Below are positions 51,006 through 61,692 of a stretch of DNA of 64,000 bases, one piece after another. Below the pieces are notes generated by a model. It was not told where the DNA came from. It searched no databases and saw only the letters and a program-made list of their open reading frames with translations. Position 1 is the stretch's first letter, and each line of letters opens with the position of its first letter. The DNA is from an uncultured Verrucomicrobiae bacterium (GTDB lineage: Bacteria; Verrucomicrobiota; Verrucomicrobiia; Chthoniobacterales; JAATET01): NCBI GenBank assembly GCA_963719495.1, contig CAVRCI010000008.1, positions 64,001 to 128,000 on the forward strand, written 5' to 3'. The translations under genes and the position numbers were made by a program.

Positions 51006-51030
51006 TATTAGCGTTGCTAATATATGCAAC
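51006..51030. promoter_or_regulatory. AT-rich overlapping dyads upstream of ccsBA (candidate operator)
   Basis: TATTAGC-gtt-GCTAATA (51006-51022) overlapping GTTGC-N8-GCAAC (51013-51030). Confidence 0.45.
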
Positions 51031-51290
51031 TCCCGGGGATGGGGGGTGAGGGAGGTGGCGGGCGACGGGTTGCTTGGTTTGGACACCTTGGGGGATGATC
51101 GCCTCGGTGGAGGACTAGCCAGAGATGCTTCGCTTCGCTGCCAGTGACATCGGTCTGCGAGGCGCGGAATCCAGGGTGAAGGCCACGGCTCGGCGGGAGC
51201 CTCGCCCTCCGGATGCCCGATGGGGGCGGCTGGCGCCGCCCCTATCGGTTTTCGGTTCGGTTTTCGGTTTGTAAGGCGGCCGTTTGGGCC

Positions 51291-51668
51291 CTAGATCGCT
51301 TCGGTGGCGGTGATGCGGTGGGGGAGGGGGGTGCCTTGGAGGAGTTCCTGGCCGGCGGTTTGCATGATCTCGAGGCCGGGGAGATGCAGCCATTCGACTT
51401 GGATGTGGCTGCCTTGCGCCTGCTTGCGCTCGAGGATGCGGAGGAGTTCGCGCAGGCCCATGGTCGAGCCGGTGTTCAGGTAGTAAAGGAGGAGGCGGAG
51501 CTCGAGGGTCGAAGTTTCGCCAAGGGAGGCTTCCAACCACGCGCCGATCCGGTCGAAAAATTCGGTCGGGTTCTCGGGGTAGGACTCGCCGCGAAGCGTG
51601 AGCGTCGACGACTCCGCGTCGAACGACACACTCGGCGTGGTCTCGGATTCTGGAATGTTCAGGTCCAT
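51291..51668 (-). CDS. siaC: SiaC family regulatory phosphoprotein (DUF1987)
   Basis: 'TPSVSFD....TLTLRGESYPENPTEFF..I..WL', 'YYLNTGS' (phospho-Thr motif), 'VEW'. Confidence 0.85.
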   Translation of the reverse strand: MDLNIPESETTPSVSFDAESSTLTLRGESYPENPTEFFDRIGAWLEASLGETSTLELRLLLYYLNTGSTMGLRELLRILERKQAQGSHIQVEWLHLPGLEIMQTAGQELLQGTPLPHRITATEAI

Positions 51669-51680
51669 GGCGTTCTCGGG

Positions 51681-52193
51681 TTAAGCACAATCGATGCTCA
51701 GGTTGATCGAAAGTGAGGATCGGCCCGAGCTGGCGGGCGAAATTTCGATCTCGGGCGGGCTGGCGGCCTTGCGGTGAAGGTCGATGAGGCCAAGGCCCGA
51801 GCGAGCGGCGGGAGGATCGGTCTGGTGTAAACGGGCGAGGTAGAGGCGGTTGAGTTCGCCGGTCGGAATGGCGCGGATCGACGCCAGCCGATCCCGGAGG
51901 GCCGGGACGTCGGCGTTGTCGATGAGATTGGTCGTGCGAAGGACGAAACCGGTCGCCGTGCGGTTGACCGTGATGCGACCGATGCCGACGTTTTCTTCGG
52001 GGCTGCGTTCGGCGGAGTGGCGGGCGATATTCTGAGCGAGTTCGACGAAAGCTCCAAACAGGAGAATCCGACCGCCGACGGAGAGTTGGGTGCGGGCTCG
52101 GAGGGTCCGGCCGCAATCGGTGCTGATGGTTGAGGTGATGGGACCTTCGGCGAGAAAGAGCATGAGATCGTGCGGGCGGAGACCGGTTATCAT
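51681..52193 (-). CDS. siaB: SiaB family protein kinase
   Basis: Start MITGLRP (ATGA overlap); 'EGPIT', 'FVELAQNIARHS', 'TTNLI', 'ELNRLY', 'SGLGLIDL.RKA'. Confidence 0.82.
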   Translation of the reverse strand: MITGLRPHDLMLFLAEGPITSTISTDCGRTLRARTQLSVGGRILLFGAFVELAQNIARHSAERSPEENVGIGRITVNRTATGFVLRTTNLIDNADVPALRDRLASIRAIPTGELNRLYLARLHQTDPPAARSGLGLIDLHRKAASPPEIEISPASSGRSSLSINLSIDCA

Positions 52194-54382
52194 GGAACGT
52201 GGGCGGCGGGCGTTTCGGTCGGATTGGAATCGGGAAAGCGGATGCCAAGCAGCGTGACGTCGTCGCGTTGGGCGGCACCGCCGCGAAATTCCGAGAAGGC
52301 GTCGATGAGGGATCGGCGCTGGGAGGCAAGGGTTTCGGCGTGGAGTCCGGTGAGCAAATCGGTGAGGCGGCGGTGGTCGAAGACCTGACGAAGGTGGTTG
52401 GGCTGCTGGACGAGGCCGTCGGATTGCAGGTAGATGGCGAGGCCGGGTAAAATGGGCAGCGTGTGATTGGCGAATTCGATGGTGGGAGGTTCGAGGGGGC
52501 CGCCGCCGAGTCCGTGGGGGTCGCCGGGGATGACGCCGGTGAGGGCCTCGCCGTCGCCGGGGCGGACCCACCAGAGCGGGCGGTGAGCTCCGGCGAACAC
52601 GATGGCACCGGGATCGAATCGCACGATGGCGGCCTCCATTCCGTCGCGATTGGTCGCGCCATCGTCGCCTTCCTGGCCGAGGATCGCCCGGACGCGACCG
52701 TGCATCTCGGAGAGGATGGCCGCCGGGTCGCGCACGCCCTTCTCGACGACGATGTGCTCGAGCAGGAGGTGACCAATCATGGACATGAACGCCCCGGGCA
52801 CGCCGTGCCCGGTGCAGTCGACGACGGCGCAGAAGCTGACGTCGGCGGCGCGGTGGCACCAATAGAAATCGCCGGAGACGAGATCGCGGGATTGGTAGAT
52901 GAGAAAATGATCGCCGACGGCGTCCTGCAGCTGGGCCGGGGTGGGGAGGAGAGCCTGCTGGATGCGGCGGGCGTATTGGAGGCTGCTGAAGATCTTCTGG
53001 TTGGCCGCCTGACTCTCGTCGCGGGCGATTCGCAGGCGTCGGGTGATGTTTTCCTGAAACTCCCGGTCGTCGATGACCTTGTCGACGACGCGGTTGTATT
53101 CCGCGGCGATCTGGCCGACTTCCGAGTAGGGGTCGATCCGCAGGCGGCTGGTGAATTCGCCGCTTTCGCTGTGGCGCGCCATGTCGCGGATGAGATCGGT
53201 GATTTCGGTGTTGGCGCCGTGTTCGGAGACGTTGAGTCCGATCTGCTCGGCCTCGGCGTGGATTCGGAGGGGATGAACGCGATTCACGAGCGAGAGCAGC
53301 AGCCAGCCGCCGCCGAAGGCCCAGACGAAGAAGACGAGCGTCCCGAGCGCCTGGATGCCGGTCTGGGCGAGCGGATCGAGGCCGGTGCCGAGGATGGCGG
53401 CGTCGCCGAAGAGGCCGACGGCCAGCGTGCCCCAGACGCCGGGGATCGCGTGCGCGGCGGCGGCTCCGACGACGTCGTCGATGCGCAGGCGTTCGAACCA
53501 GGCAATGGCCGCGTAGCTGAGGAGGCCGCCGACGGCACCGACGGCGAGGGCCTCGCCGGTGGTGACCACGTCGCAGTTTGCGGTGATCGCAACCAGGCCG
53601 CCGATGCAGCCGTTGAGGGTGGCCGGGAGCTGCGGGAGGCCGCGTTTCGCCCACACGGCGGCGAGCGCGGCCAGGCAGCCCGCTGCCCCGGCGATGACGG
53701 TGTTCACGATGATGAGGGGGACGGCGTCGTTGAAGGCGAGGGTGCTGCCGCCGTTGAAGCCGATCCAACCGACGAAGAGAATGATCACGCCGACGGTCGA
53801 GAAAACGAGGCTGTGCGGACTGACGAGGGGGGTCTTGGAATCGAAGCGGCCCGTGCGCGGGCCAAGAATGATCACCGCGGCGAGGGCGACCCAGCCGCCG
53901 ACGCTGTGCACGACGGTGGAGCCCGCGAAGTCGCGGAAGCCGAGGTCGCGCAGCCAGCCGTCGGGGTTCCACGCCCAACCGCCGCCGATCGGGTAGAGGA
54001 CGCCGGAGATGACGATGGTGACGACGATGTAGGAGGCGAAGCTCATCCGCTCGGCCACGGCTCCGGAGACGATGGTGGCCGCGGTGGCGCAGAACATGAC
54101 CTGAAAAATGAGAAGCATCAGGGTGTCGGTTCCGAGGTCCGCCCCGGCGAAGAATTCGGTGGTCCCGAACCAGCCGGAGGGCGAGGCCCCGAACATGATC
54201 GCGAAGCCGAAGGCCCAGAAGAGGACCGTGGCGACGCAGAAATCGATGAGGTTCTTGATCGCGACGTTGACGGAATTCTTCGAGCGCACGAGGCCCGCTT
54301 CGAGCATGCAGAACCCGATCTGCATCGACATCACGAGCGCCGCGCTGGTGAGGATCCAAAGGTGGTCGATGCGGTCGGGCAC
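52190..54382 (-). CDS. Ammonium transporter (Amt) fused to HAMP-like linker and PP2C/SpoIIE phosphatase (SiaA-position protein)
   Basis: Amt motifs 'MQIGFCMLEAGLVRSKNSVN', 'FQVMFCATAATIVSGAVAER', 'DFAGSTVVHSVGGW', 'WIGFNGGS', 'IDDVVGAAAAH'; PP2C 'SLQYARRIQQALLP', 'VSGDFYW', 'DCTGHGVPGAFMS', 'SDG', 'QRDDVT'. Confidence 0.92.
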   Translation of the reverse strand: MPDRIDHLWILTSAALVMSMQIGFCMLEAGLVRSKNSVNVAIKNLIDFCVATVLFWAFGFAIMFGASPSGWFGTTEFFAGADLGTDTLMLLIFQVMFCATAATIVSGAVAERMSFASYIVVTIVISGVLYPIGGGWAWNPDGWLRDLGFRDFAGSTVVHSVGGWVALAAVIILGPRTGRFDSKTPLVSPHSLVFSTVGVIILFVGWIGFNGGSTLAFNDAVPLIIVNTVIAGAAGCLAALAAVWAKRGLPQLPATLNGCIGGLVAITANCDVVTTGEALAVGAVGGLLSYAAIAWFERLRIDDVVGAAAAHAIPGVWGTLAVGLFGDAAILGTGLDPLAQTGIQALGTLVFFVWAFGGGWLLLSLVNRVHPLRIHAEAEQIGLNVSEHGANTEITDLIRDMARHSESGEFTSRLRIDPYSEVGQIAAEYNRVVDKVIDDREFQENITRRLRIARDESQAANQKIFSSLQYARRIQQALLPTPAQLQDAVGDHFLIYQSRDLVSGDFYWCHRAADVSFCAVVDCTGHGVPGAFMSMIGHLLLEHIVVEKGVRDPAAILSEMHGRVRAILGQEGDDGATNRDGMEAAIVRFDPGAIVFAGAHRPLWWVRPGDGEALTGVIPGDPHGLGGGPLEPPTIEFANHTLPILPGLAIYLQSDGLVQQPNHLRQVFDHRRLTDLLTGLHAETLASQRRSLIDAFSEFRGGAAQRDDVTLLGIRFPDSNPTETPAAHVP

Positions 54383-54412: not shown

Positions 54413-56308
54413 TTATTCCGCGGGTCGATCCTGGTCGACGCGGGGCGTGGGCGGAGGACCGGTGCGCCCGGGGGCGGCTCCTTGGTGAATGGACGCGAGA
54501 GTTTTCACGAGGGCGGGGCGGCGGATGGGTTTGGTGAGGATGTCGTCCATGCCCGCTTCGAGGTAGGCGCCGCTCTGCTCCCGCAGGGCGTTGGCGGTGA
54601 GGGCGACGATGGGGAGGTGGTCGGTGGGACTGGCGAGTTGGCGATCGCGTTCGAGCGATCGGAGCTGGCGGGTGGCTTCGGGGCCGTTCATGACGGGCAT
54701 TTCGATGTCCATCAGAACGAGGTCGAAGGGGTCGGTGCGGCAGACGGCGACGGCTTCGGCTCCGTTGCGGGCGGTGTGGCAGGCGCAGCCGAGCTTTTCC
54801 AGGAGGAGGACGACGAGGCGGGAATTGAGAAGATTGTCTTCGACGACGAGGACGCGGAGTCCGTCGAAATCCGTTCGGGTCGCGGGGCCCGTCGGGGGCT
54901 CGGCGGCGGCCGGGGTGCCGGGCTGAACGTCGGAGTCGAGTCGGGAGCGCGTCGTGACGGTCACGGTCATCGTGGTGCCCGCGCCGACCTGGCTGCGCAC
55001 GGCGATGTCGCCGCCCATTTTTTCGCAAATGCGCTGCGCGATCGCGAGGCCCAGTCCGACCCCGCCGTGGCGCTCGGCGTCGGAGCTGCCGGCCTGGCGG
55101 AAGGCTTCGAAGAGGCCGTCCAGCTTCGCGGCGGGGATTCCCACGCCGGTATCCTCGACGCGGAATTCCCAGGTGGTGCGGCCCGGGTCGGCGGCGGGGC
55201 CGGCCGAGACGCTGAGGGTCACGCTGCCCTCTTCGGTGAACTTGATCGCGTTCTCGACGATGTTCTGCAGGACCTGGGAAAGCCGGGTGCGGTCGGCGTG
55301 GATGATGGTGGGCGCAGTGGGGTCGACGTGGTAGATGAAGGCGACGTTCTTGGCGTCGGCGCGGACCTGGAGGATACGGGCGAGGTCGCGAAGCCAGACG
55401 GCGATCGGGTAGGACAGCTCGTGAAGTTCGAGCTCGCCGGATTCGACGCGGGAAAGGTCGAGGATTTCGTTGATGAGGGAGAGGAGGTTTTCGCCCGAGG
55501 TGCGGATCGCGGAGAGGTAGCCGCGTTGGTCGGCGGTGAGGTCGGTGGTGCCGAGGAGGTCGGCGAATCCGAGGACGGCGTTCATCGGCGTGCGGATGTC
55601 GTGGCTCATCATGGCGAGGAACTCGCTCTTGGCCCGGTCGGCCCGCTCGGCGCGTTCGCGTTGTTCGCGGAGTTCGGCGGCGGCGAGTTTTTGCTCGGTG
55701 ATGTCGATGACGAAGCCGTGCCAGAGGGTGCCGCCGTCGGGCAGGCGTTCGATGCGGGCGTGGGCGGATCGCCAGACCGTGCCGGCCTTCGGCAGGGTCA
55801 CCCGGTAATCCTCGAACCACGGGGTGAGGTCGCGGAAGGACGTGACGAGACTGCGCCAGATGCGGGCCCGGTCGTCCTCGTGCACGAGGTCGAGAATGAG
55901 CGAGCCGTTGGCGCGGGCTTGTTCCGGGGTGAGTTCGTAGATCGTGCGGATCGCCTCGCTGGAATGCAGGACGGACGTGCGACCGCTCGGGTATTGGCGG
56001 AACTGGTAGAGCATCCCGGGGAGGTCGCGCGTGAGGCGGTGAAAGAGCTCGAGGCCAGCGGGCTCCTGGCGACGGTTCGTTTCCACCCGGATGTGCAGGA
56101 CGGTGATGGTAATTCCGACGACGAAGGAACCGATGGTCGCGAGCGTCCAGGGAAGCCAATCGAATGCCCGGTCGGGCGACGCGAGCGTGTAACCCCAGAG
56201 GGTAAAAAGGACGAGCGCTCCGGCAAGACCGAAGGCGCAACTCCCGAGAAACGCCCTCAGCGCCGAGGGGCGGGGGGGTTCTTTGGAATTATCGAGAGTG
56301 CTCTTCAT
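54413..56308 (-). CDS. Membrane PAS hybrid histidine kinase (2TM-PAS-HisKA-HATPase-REC)
   Basis: Probable start MKSTLDN; PAS 'PGMLYQF...VHEDDR...WHGFVIDITEQK'; 'MSHDIRTPMN'; 'GGVGLGL'; REC 'LMDIEMP...TKP'. Confidence 0.88.
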   Translation of the reverse strand: MKSTLDNSKEPPRPSALRAFLGSCAFGLAGALVLFTLWGYTLASPDRAFDWLPWTLATIGSFVVGITITVLHIRVETNRRQEPAGLELFHRLTRDLPGMLYQFRQYPSGRTSVLHSSEAIRTIYELTPEQARANGSLILDLVHEDDRARIWRSLVTSFRDLTPWFEDYRVTLPKAGTVWRSAHARIERLPDGGTLWHGFVIDITEQKLAAAELREQRERAERADRAKSEFLAMMSHDIRTPMNAVLGFADLLGTTDLTADQRGYLSAIRTSGENLLSLINEILDLSRVESGELELHELSYPIAVWLRDLARILQVRADAKNVAFIYHVDPTAPTIIHADRTRLSQVLQNIVENAIKFTEEGSVTLSVSAGPAADPGRTTWEFRVEDTGVGIPAAKLDGLFEAFRQAGSSDAERHGGVGLGLAIAQRICEKMGGDIAVRSQVGAGTTMTVTVTTRSRLDSDVQPGTPAAAEPPTGPATRTDFDGLRVLVVEDNLLNSRLVVLLLEKLGCACHTARNGAEAVAVCRTDPFDLVLMDIEMPVMNGPEATRQLRSLERDRQLASPTDHLPIVALTANALREQSGAYLEAGMDDILTKPIRRPALVKTLASIHQGAAPGRTGPPPTPRVDQDRPAE

Positions 56309-56344: not shown

Positions 56345-56432
56345 GTAGCGGCGGTCTGTGACCGCCGGAGATCTCGCGACCCGGAAGTTGACGCTGCTCA
56401 GCCCGACGGCGGCGGTCACAGACCGCCGCTAC
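56345..56432. repeat. REPIN-like inverted doublet of GTAG-type REP
   Basis: gtagcggcggtctgtgaccgccg (56345-56367) and its exact reverse complement (56410-56432), 42-bp spacer. Confidence 0.85.
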
Positions 56433-60285: not shown

Positions 60286-61572
60286 TCAGCCGATTTGGGT
60301 TGGTGATTGGCTGGAAGCCAATTCCACGGGCTCTACGAAGAACATTCGGGCGTCGGATTTGCCTTTTATGGGGATGAGGCCGCGGTCGGTGGCGGTGACG
60401 TGATCGCGGGCGGCGGCCAGGAATGCCGCGGAGACGTTGATGCGGGCGGATTCGCCTTCGCTTTCGAAACGGGCGGCGGTGTTGACGGTGTCGCCCCAGA
60501 CGTCGAAGGCGAACTTGCGGTTGCCGACGACGCCGGCGACCAGGGGGCCGCGGTGGATGCCGACGCGGACGTCCCAGTAGCCGAGTCCGGCGGCGGTTTT
60601 TTCCCGTTTGCGGTGGGCGATGAAGTCGCGGATTTCGAGGGCGACGCGGAGGATGCGGCCGGCGGGGTCGGGGGTGGTCTCACCCATGCCGGAGAGGCAG
60701 AGGTAGGCGTCGCCGATGGTCTTCAATTTTTCGACGTCGTGGCGGTCGGTGATGCGGTCGAATTCGACGAAGCAGACGTTGAGTTCGTCGAGGAGTTCGC
60801 CGGCGGTGAGGCCTTCGGCGATGGCGGTGAAGCCGCTGAAGTCGGCGATGAGGACGTTGACGTCGTCGAGGTGGCGGGCGGCGACGCGGCCGTGCGTTTT
60901 CAGTTCCTCGGCGACGTCGTCGGGGAGGATGTTGCGCAGGAGGGCGTCGGAGCGCTCCTTTTCCTCGGCGAGGTCGCGTTGACTTTCGATGAGTTCCTCT
61001 TTCAGGCGGATGGATTCCTGCTGGAGTTCGAGAGTGTCGTGGAGGCCGAGCTGCTGCTCGACGAGGCCGCCGAAGCCGCGGAGGAAGGCGATCTGGTGGG
61101 GGTCGAGGGTGCGGGGTTGGGTGTCGAGGACGCAGAGGGTGCCGACGTTCACGCCGGCTTCGAGGGCGAGGGGCATCCCGGCGTAGAAGCGGGCGTGGGG
61201 GTTGCCGGTCACGAGCGGACTGTGGGCGAATCGGTTGTCGAGGCGGAGGTCCGGCACGACGAGGGGGTCGTTTTGGAGGATGGCGTGGCCGCAGAACGAG
61301 ATGTCGCGGGGGGTCTCGTCGAGGTCGATGCCGTGCTTGGATTTGAACCACTGGCGGTTCACGTCGACCATGGAGATGTAGGCGATGGGGACGTCGAAAA
61401 CGCGGGCGGCGAGGGCGGTGATCTGGTCGAAACGGTCCTCGGGCGGCGTGTCGAGGATGCGGAGATGGCGGAGGGCGCGGAGGCGGGCGTCTTCGTTGGC
61501 GGGCTGGGCCAGGCAGGAGACGCGGGCGGCTTGCGGGGAGGTTGCGGGTGGGGGCTGGAGAGGACGAACCAC
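60286..61572 (-). CDS. GAF-domain class III adenylate cyclase
   Basis: GAF 'RLRALRHLRILDTPPEDRFD'; 'SDALLRNILP'; 'ADFSGFT', 'KLKTIGDAY', 'FDVWGDTVNTAARFE' (Lys/Asp ATP-specifying pair); start uncertain. Confidence 0.88.
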   Translation of the reverse strand: MVRPLQPPPATSPQAARVSCLAQPANEDARLRALRHLRILDTPPEDRFDQITALAARVFDVPIAYISMVDVNRQWFKSKHGIDLDETPRDISFCGHAILQNDPLVVPDLRLDNRFAHSPLVTGNPHARFYAGMPLALEAGVNVGTLCVLDTQPRTLDPHQIAFLRGFGGLVEQQLGLHDTLELQQESIRLKEELIESQRDLAEEKERSDALLRNILPDDVAEELKTHGRVAARHLDDVNVLIADFSGFTAIAEGLTAGELLDELNVCFVEFDRITDRHDVEKLKTIGDAYLCLSGMGETTPDPAGRILRVALEIRDFIAHRKREKTAAGLGYWDVRVGIHRGPLVAGVVGNRKFAFDVWGDTVNTAARFESEGESARINVSAAFLAAARDHVTATDRGLIPIKGKSDARMFFVEPVELASSQSPTQIG

Positions 61573-61692
61573 GACGGAGGAGGATCGTTGGCGGGGCGGG
61601 TTTGTCAAAGGAAACGGCGGCGGTGCGGGTGGGCGGCTGGGGATTTTTTCTGATTTGCGTCGCCGCGGGGTTCGTGGGAAGTAATCCGCGTT

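Follow-up and report, generated by a model that had tools for sequence, protein, structure and literature searches.

The window, a stretch of 64,000 nucleotides from an uncultured Verrucomicrobiae bacterium, contains a cassette of three genes on its minus strand. The first is a single 730-aa open reading frame at 52190-54382(-) that encodes an Amt-HAMP-PP2C fusion, a SiaA equivalent according to its Pfam (Ammonium_transp and SpoIIE), NCBIfam and PDB matches. Its stop shares four nucleotides (ATGA) with the start of a 170-aa siaB-family kinase gene (51681..52193, minus strand), which matches NF038262 above the cut-off and PDB 6KKO, and this gene is followed by siaC (51291..51668, minus strand), coding for a DUF1987 phosphoprotein (Pfam SiaC, E 3.4e-26). 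Downstream of siaC stand a 14-bp hairpin (51217..51248), terminator- or REP-like in sequence, and then resB. No GGDEF gene adjoins the cassette; the sole GGDEF match of the same genome is a REC-like-GGDEF-EAL protein on contig C2, and it gives no match to the stalk profile described below. Three PII matches occur in the genome, none adjoining the cassette and one beside the canonical amt, with which it forms a separate amt-glnK pair. Thus, the gene content set out in the original prediction, namely one reading frame joining Amt and PP2C, an overlapping siaB, a following siaC, and neither a GGDEF gene after siaC nor an adjacent PII gene, is borne out by the neighbours and by the genome-wide matches. 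No sigma-70 promoter match was found. The genome (G000) also carries a paralogue of the fusion on contig C6; both copies are intact and are 69% identical to each other. A gene for a PAS-HisKA-HATPase-REC hybrid kinase, a candidate client of the switch, lies 30 bp before the fusion (54413..56308, minus strand). Neither this gene nor the C6 copy had been mentioned in the prediction.

The Amt domain (aa 8-391; 53210..54361, minus strand; Pfam PF00909 Ammonium_transp, E 3.6e-114) is of the receptor type. Its best PDB matches are Sd-Amt1 (8QJ3, E 1e-113) and Ks-Amt5 (6EU6), with transporters far lower. The strict N1/N2 receptor signature, QX6EX15NX2D[FT]X54-60TX2[ST] (PMC11152129), is matched at aa 21-106 (54065..54322, minus strand). 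The N1/N2 residues are Q21, E28, K43, N44, D47, T103 and S106, with Y118 just past this interval, and all eight site residues of Sd-Amt1 are retained in the alignment. Of the 75 homologues tested, 56 carry the strict signature, whereas the canonical glnK-linked Amt of the same genome does not. Both pore histidines are retained as predicted, H159/H311 aligning to H169/H323 of Sd-Amt1. The predicted Phe-gate motifs are likewise found: F97 and F209, which we take to be the gate, are invariant across 41 homologues. With an intact Amt domain, both pore histidines and a transducer fused at the C terminus, the protein has the domain features of the ammonium receptors (AmR). The presence of N1/N2 is no proof of sensing, since N1/N2-bearing plant Amt1 transporters exist and these sites occur in 29.6% of Amt sequences (PMC11152129). 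It is from the sequence that we infer ammonium gating of the phosphatase, and the sign of the effect is unsure because the response of Ks-Amt5 is biphasic.

Between receptor and phosphatase lies a HAMP-like linker with a coiled coil (about aa 393-475; 52958..53206, minus strand), which aligns through the HAMP linker of Sd-Amt1 and to the SiaA model from position 342 onwards. These alignments favour the HAMP-like linker of the prediction, although Pfam HAMP has no match in it. The SiaA-type PP2C follows (aa 443-716; 52235..53056, minus strand; PDB 6K4E, E 4e-40), with Pfam SpoIIE spanning aa 519-716 and the DCTGHGVPGA motif, by which its type had been predicted, at aa 522-531. The catalytic residues D505, D522, C523, G525, D655, G656 and D707, paired by order and motif with those reported for SiaA (PMC7647112), are kept and are conserved among the homologues. 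Against the NCBIfam SiaA model, aa 399-716 score 185 bits, where the full-length cut-off is 700; the Amt takes the place of model positions 1-341, and the sensor that a complete SiaA has at its N terminus is missing.

The siaB product scores 88.2 bits against the SiaB-family kinase model NF038262 (cut-off 85) and falls below the cut-off of the SiaB equivalog NF038264. Unlike free-standing SiaBs, it has no N-terminal helix, and the alignment, together with a quick version of the phylogenetic tree, points to a triple fusion as the likely source from which the gene separated. In SiaC, N65-T66 align to N67-T68 of P. aeruginosa, which is the NT phospho-motif that had been predicted; the codon of T66 is at 51471-51473, and a Gly replaces S69 of P. 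aeruginosa. On the SiaC surface, only the copies of the window and of another genome of its genus (G004) combine a changed K72 with a basic residue at M75, while D79 and D114 are also altered in G010 and G011. The surface residues give no clean split of the loci with and without a stalk kinase.

The fusion and its operon are conserved. Among 120 proteins listed, at least 70, the window copy and its paralogue counted, are Amt+SpoIIE homologues that align with 95% or more of the query, and at least 7 of those listed fuse Amt, PP2C and SiaB in one chain; at locus L126, SiaB is fused to SiaC. Such a domain-architecture search had been suggested with the prediction. The gene context agrees with the replacement of SiaA by Amt-PP2C: where flanking DNA is available, each of the 16 distinct loci has siaB, and all 15 that extend far enough have siaC. 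An Amt-PP2C junction that stays in open frame occurs in 6 of 17 family genomes, that of the window included, and in 11 metagenome loci. In a scan of genome contigs, 1 of 79 loci is a close full-junction match and other PP2Cs dominate. No relative of the fusion was found in viral contigs, and none of the 61 plasmid records matching the Pseudoalteromonas homologue, which belongs to a distant branch, covers 80% of that query.

The prediction had left the effector of SiaC unknown. This holds only for the window's genus, in which no stalk kinase was found; for the family, the relatives place a kinase with a SiaD-like helix right after siaC. It is a sensor-less histidine kinase, found in every one of the 10 distinct loci from outside the genus that have enough DNA, and on sequence comparison it bears a SiaD-like SiaC-docking helix, the stalk, whose Asp stands 43 residues from the phospho-His in 10 of 10 kinases. 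When a stalk profile is run against 177,635 PDB sequences, SiaD (7E6G) ranks second, with a weak E of 0.25 and in register with the proximal SiaC motif of SiaD, and the NCBIfam SiaD model matches 2 of 9 stalks (best E 0.0031). Among 400 genomes of the phylum, five besides the window's own contain SiaC, and in this held-out test the stalk kinase is the next gene in all five, three of them outside the training set. The profile missed the stalk kinase of G191 and matched in G426 (E 6e-4), a genome without SiaC. A model of the SiaC-stalk complex for the G010 pair reaches 0.82, the best of three controls being 0.00, and passes a mark that 116 of 157 solved pairs attain, as do 2 of 215 mismatched ones; the pair is that of a relative, not of the window, and the pass may reflect memory of the solved SiaC-SiaD structure. 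The runs share at least 92% of contacts, the partner pLDDT is 90, and SiaC T68 contacts stalk S56. From these comparisons and this model, the stalk kinase likely replaces SiaD in the relatives. No response regulator was identified for it.

We consider it reasonably probable that the locus works as a threonine switch gated by ammonium, with a sensor-less histidine kinase, and not SiaD, as its predicted output in most relatives. Ammonium would bind at N1/N2 and cause the HAMP helices to pair, as proposed for Sd-Amt1, and this pairing would switch the dimeric PP2C, probably on. The phosphatase would remove the phosphate from SiaC T66, opposed by SiaB, and free SiaC would clamp the stalk of the kinase, with its conserved Asp 43 residues N-terminal to the phospho-His, and so change kinase activity. 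In the window's genus, where the kinase appears to have been lost, SiaC would likely serve a client without a classical stalk.

Alternatively, the Amt domain may transport or act as a scaffold, with a phosphatase that is constitutive or reads some other cue, such as membrane state, as for SiaA. The intact His pair, the fact that some N1/N2-bearing Amts transport (PMC11152129), and a reported response of SiaA to membrane perturbation (in the accessible part of PMC12834913) are in keeping with this; however, the closest solved relatives are two receptors that bind and do not transport (PMC11152129, PMC5764959), the linker aligns with that of Sd-Amt1, and the genome has its separate amt-glnK pair, so that we regard a transporter or scaffold as quite improbable. 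That the fusion is an assembly artefact, and hence absent from relatives, is refuted because independent assemblies carry it: the homologues are near full-length, and the junction is open in the family genomes and metagenome loci counted above. Two DNA runs, which gave short contigs only, yielded no near-identical junction-spanning contig, and we leave an artefact a negligible probability.

What, then, does SiaC serve in the window's genus? In G000, neither a motif regex nor two stalk profiles nor a survey of H-boxes revealed a stalk protein (best 9-11 bits; motif in none of the 20 recognised H-boxes, among 29 kinase-like ORFs), and none was found in G002 or G004. A diverged stalk could hide in the genus, since the profile missed 2 of 13 known stalks on leave-one-out. 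The switch may have been orphaned, SiaC still being cycled without output after the loss of its kinase client and the cassette itself being lost: a 600-bp scar stands in its place in G001, the equivalent site in G003 is empty, of the 5 other genus genomes only 2 were found to carry the junction, and both siaB of G004 and the kinase gene upstream of the C6 paralogue are frameshifted. These frameshifts may, however, be sequencing errors, and G000 retains two intact copies. Moreover, against G004, the dN/dS is 0.10 for Amt, 0.20 for HAMP-PP2C and 0.20 for SiaC at a dS of 0.9-1.2, similar to the neighbours (0.17-0.24), and the window's siaC is under purifying selection. With the kinase apparently lost and selection still maintaining the switch, a client lacking the classical stalk is likely for SiaC, and an orphaned switch is unlikely. 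For the window copy, the chance of another, unseen client falls a little short of even, and the absence of any live output is rather less likely than that. The nearest candidate is the upstream PAS hybrid kinase, with a docking site unlike the SiaD stalk. Besides its place in the window, 30 bp away on the same strand, it stands before each of the 4 genus loci, the paralogue at another chromosomal site among them; these are the loci in which no stalk kinase was found, and the hybrid kinase is under selection (dN/dS 0.24). Yet these four loci form one clade, so their linkage to it counts as one event; its orthologues stand without the cassette near resB in G003, G013 and G016, that of G001 adjoins only the scar, and it has no score against the stalk profile. 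We therefore put it forward as a doubtful, if tangible, client.

With SiaABCD of Pseudomonas aeruginosa (PMC7647112, PMC7278518, PMC8457831), the cassette has in common the catalytic residues of HAMP-PP2C, a SiaB-family kinase, the N-T phospho-site of SiaC, the A-B-C-output gene order and the docking helix of the output protein, the output being present here only in the relatives. In contrast, SiaA uses an N-terminal sensor and the fusion an Amt receptor domain, the relatives have a histidine kinase in the output position instead of SiaD (neither was found in the window's genus), the kinase is often fused to the phosphatase, and none of the three proteins of the cassette reaches its SiaA, SiaB or SiaC equivalog cut-off. 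Sd-Amt1 (Amt-HAMP-GGDEF, PMC11152129) and Ks-Amt5 (Amt-histidine kinase, PMC5764959) share N1/N2, the Lys/Tyr switch residues and the His pair with the fusion, and Sd-Amt1 alone also matches its HAMP linker; their transducers are a direct cyclase and kinase, whereas that of the fusion is a Ser/Thr phosphatase that would work via a partner switch. By their description, Amt-GI5 and SAR11_0049/0050 of SAR11 have the same three-domain plan and a similar size (716 aa). In the accessible parts of PMC11796062 and PMC2944026, this Amt-HAMP-phosphatase is proposed as an ammonium sensor and no cognate transducer is named, whereas the window-type fusion has the genes for kinase and substrate beside it and, in relatives, that for the output as well. 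The original view that the combination is undescribed thus holds in part: the Amt-HAMP-phosphatase is in print for SAR11, but our literature search found no paper on a Sia-linked Amt-phosphatase operon, on its link to SiaB/SiaC or on its kinase output. A SAR11 Amt partner switch has no support in the accessible part of PMC3870248.

The activating signal of SiaA has been called unknown (PMC7278518) and is poorly defined. A SiaA-type phosphatase that naturally comes with a small, defined ligand opens the HAMP-to-PP2C switch to study in vitro, and the fusion offers a test of how a dimeric enzyme can be driven by a trimeric Amt. The operon supplies the downstream partners not found for the SAR11 Amt-phosphatase. 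The Sia switch would be modular at both ends, with Amt as input and a histidine kinase as output, and the stalk-less lineage is a direct hunting ground for a new SiaC client. It is tempting, though decidedly tentative, to propose for Verrucomicrobiota a PII-independent nitrogen pathway that runs from receptor-phosphatase through SiaC to a sensor-less kinase, with the SiaC of the window's genus rewired to a stalk-less client. If true, Thr and His phosphorylation would be joined in a PII-independent pathway whose receptor-phosphatase is often one chain with the opposing kinase, and the rewired SiaC of the genus would reveal a second docking mode.

ORF and domain analysis bore out the three ORFs described originally, which lie on the minus strand: an Amt-HAMP-PP2C fusion (52190–54382, 730 aa), siaB (51681–52193) and siaC (51291–51668), together the cassette. 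In a Pfam scan, the fusion contains Amt at aa 8–391 and SpoIIE at aa 519–716, and the NCBIfam model of the SiaA phosphatase matches aa 399–716, that is, the SiaA linker and PP2C without the SiaA sensor. The catalytic-region residues of SiaA, D457, D474, C475, G477, D600, G601 and D653 (PMC7647112), have equivalents by order and motif in D505, D522, C523, G525, D655, G656 and D707; among 41 homologues, C523 is conserved in at least 90% and the other six are invariant. The window's siaB passes the NCBIfam SiaB-family cut-off, and the phospho-motif claimed for siaC holds, with T66 aligned to T68 of P. aeruginosa SiaC. As had also been stated, no GGDEF or PII gene lies beside the cassette: in the window's own genome (G000, 98.6% complete), a canonical amt-glnK pair, the one GGDEF match and the three PII matches all lie elsewhere. 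An ORF at approximately 60286–61650 (minus strand), 6 kb from the cassette, may encode a GAF domain with an adenylate cyclase, judging by its motifs as read by eye.

The domain-architecture search proposed originally found the fusion beyond the window. Among the 120 matches listed, at least 70 proteins join Amt and SpoIIE and match 95% or more of the query length; at least 7 of these 70 additionally carry a SiaB domain. Of 17 genomes from the family, 6 have the Amt-PP2C junction, as do 2 of another 400 from the phylum. It also occurs in 11 metagenome loci, which sample the window's clade alone because the search pattern was built on its spacing. An assembly artefact is ruled out by these homologues and junctions. 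The source-named close homologues among the matches listed are from Chthoniobacterales, Opitutaceae and Puniceicoccus, which makes this a clade within Verrucomicrobiota. The matches listed also include Amt-PAS-SpoIIE fusions (P0081, P0083, P0084, P0113), some with cyanobacterial source names, and the same Amt type is common to many Amt-kinase fusions among them.

The loci annotated came from genomes (8) and metagenomes (11). Adding the window and merging four duplicates (L120, L127, L128, L129) leaves 16 distinct loci; G009, on a 2.6-kb contig that lacks context, would be the 17th and stands outside the count. All 16 have siaB, and siaC is found in 15/15 reaching far enough. One locus has a SiaB-SiaC fusion (L126:1133–2002), and another the order siaB-siaC-kinase-amt (L124:2348–6461). 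A second cassette copy in G000 (contig C6, L010:8391–13355) encodes Amt-HAMP-PP2C-SiaB as one chain of 904 aa, followed by siaC. The PAS kinase gene upstream of this copy carries a frameshift close to a homopolymer, which may be a sequencing error. By alignment, the window's SiaB is missing the first helix of free SiaBs, and in a quick tree the split copies (window, G004) are nested in a clade of triple fusions. The siaB overlap is likely a secondary split, although two independent fusions would need no more steps.

The best solved-structure matches of the fusion are the ammonium receptors Sd-Amt1 (E 1e-113) and Ks-Amt5, with transporters scoring well below, and the Sd-Amt1 alignment continues through its HAMP linker. 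The Sd-Amt1 site residues Q22, E29, K44, N45, D48, T104, S107 and Y119 (PMC11152129) align, in the same order, with Q21, E28, K43, N44, D47, T103, S106 and Y118. The receptor signature of that paper, which also notes transport by some signature-bearing Amts, is present in the window fusion and in 56/75 homologues, and for most of the other 19 the mismatch appears to lie in the spacing or the final residue. By the same motif test, it is absent from the canonical Amt of G000.

What, then, would SiaC act on? Outside the window's genus, a small HisKA-HATPase kinase comes next after siaC in 10/10 loci extending past it (L119 and L122 end too early to count). Its sole N-terminal part is a helix of SiaD pattern, the stalk (RVTRVSDITQ in the relative G010), and the helix Asp lies 43 residues N-terminal to the phospho-His in all ten. 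In SiaD, the SiaC-bound helix residues are K77, V78, R80, I81, S82, D83 and Q86, with SiaC T68 inserted at S82 and Q86 (PMC8457831). A 9-helix stalk profile run against 177,635 PDB sequences placed SiaD second and in register, although E was 0.25 and an unrelated protein ranked first; the NCBIfam SiaD model matches 2/9 stalk helices. The effector, originally called unknown, is predicted to be the stalk kinase in relatives outside the window's genus.

SiaC occurs in 5 of the 400 phylum genomes, the window's own not counted. The profile matched the gene after siaC in four, two of them outside the training set, and also one genome without SiaC; it missed the fifth, G191, where inspection revealed the same stalk kinase. 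In G392 (L145:5106–9051) and G191 (L148:2817–6823), siaC precedes a stalk-bearing hybrid kinase, PAS-like-PP2C replaces Amt-PP2C, and Ser stands for the phospho-Thr; the Sia locus of G103 (L146:183–1996) likewise has siaC followed by a stalk-bearing hybrid kinase. A complex model of G010 SiaC with aa 1–155 of its kinase, two copies of each, reached 0.82 versus 0.00 for the best control (contact agreement at least 92%, partner pLDDT 90), with SiaC T68 contacting the stalk serine; because a like complex is already solved (7E6G), a pass indicates likeness, not binding. The pass mark is reached by 116/157 solved and 2/215 mismatched pairs, counts only roughly valid here.

Gene neighbourhoods in the window's genus show no stalk kinase at any of its four loci, and stalk searches of G000, G002 and G004 found none (leave-one-out recovered 11/13 known stalks at E <0.01, so the search is good, not complete). 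The window copy is without the usual output of its relatives. Simple decay of the cassette in this genus would be one explanation, but dN/dS against G004 is 0.10 for Amt and 0.20 for both HAMP-PP2C and SiaC, like the neighbouring genes, which argues against it. A PAS hybrid kinase (54413–56308, minus strand), ending 30 bp upstream of the fusion, precedes the cassette in all four genus loci, and it also occurs cassette-free, close to resB, in G003, G013 and G016. G001 has a scar of ~600 bp (L162:9720–10315) with short pieces of amt, HAMP, PP2C and, by eye, the siaC end; this is the whole cassette collapsed by deletions. From these cassette-less kinases and the scar, the cassette looks as if it had been inserted behind a resident PAS kinase, duplicated together with it on one occasion and, in some lineages, lost. 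In the window, a REP-like perfect 23-bp inverted repeat (56345–56432) precedes the PAS kinase gene on its upstream side. A 7-3-7 perfect palindrome just upstream of resB (51006–51022), identical in G001, G003 and G004, is likely an operator for cytochrome c biogenesis genes.

The combination had been offered as lacking a known description. SpoIIE domains on two Pelagibacter Amts are noted in PMC2944026, and an Amt-HAMP-phosphatase of SAR11 is already in print as a probable sensor, its role not assessable there (PMC11796062). The PMC11152129 supplement gave no match to four phosphatase terms, and the architectures of its Fig. 7B may include the Amt-PP2C fusion. In the openly accessible full-text literature, where DUF1987 is mentioned by one paper, we found no link of Amt to SiaB/SiaC, nor any between SiaC and a histidine kinase. 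Every component has a precedent; we came across no publication there that describes how they are wired together.

In Sd-Amt1, cyclase activity is raised by NH4+, with HAMP pairing as a model (PMC11152129), and SiaA-PP2C is dimeric (PMC7647112). By analogy with both, ammonium would activate the fusion's phosphatase and thereby release SiaC to clamp its client; we infer all catalytic steps, and the sign of the ammonium effect, in this way. As read from sequence, the cassette is a genuine and conserved Sia-switch variant, in which the input is a putative ammonium receptor and the output, for most relatives, a predicted histidine kinase.
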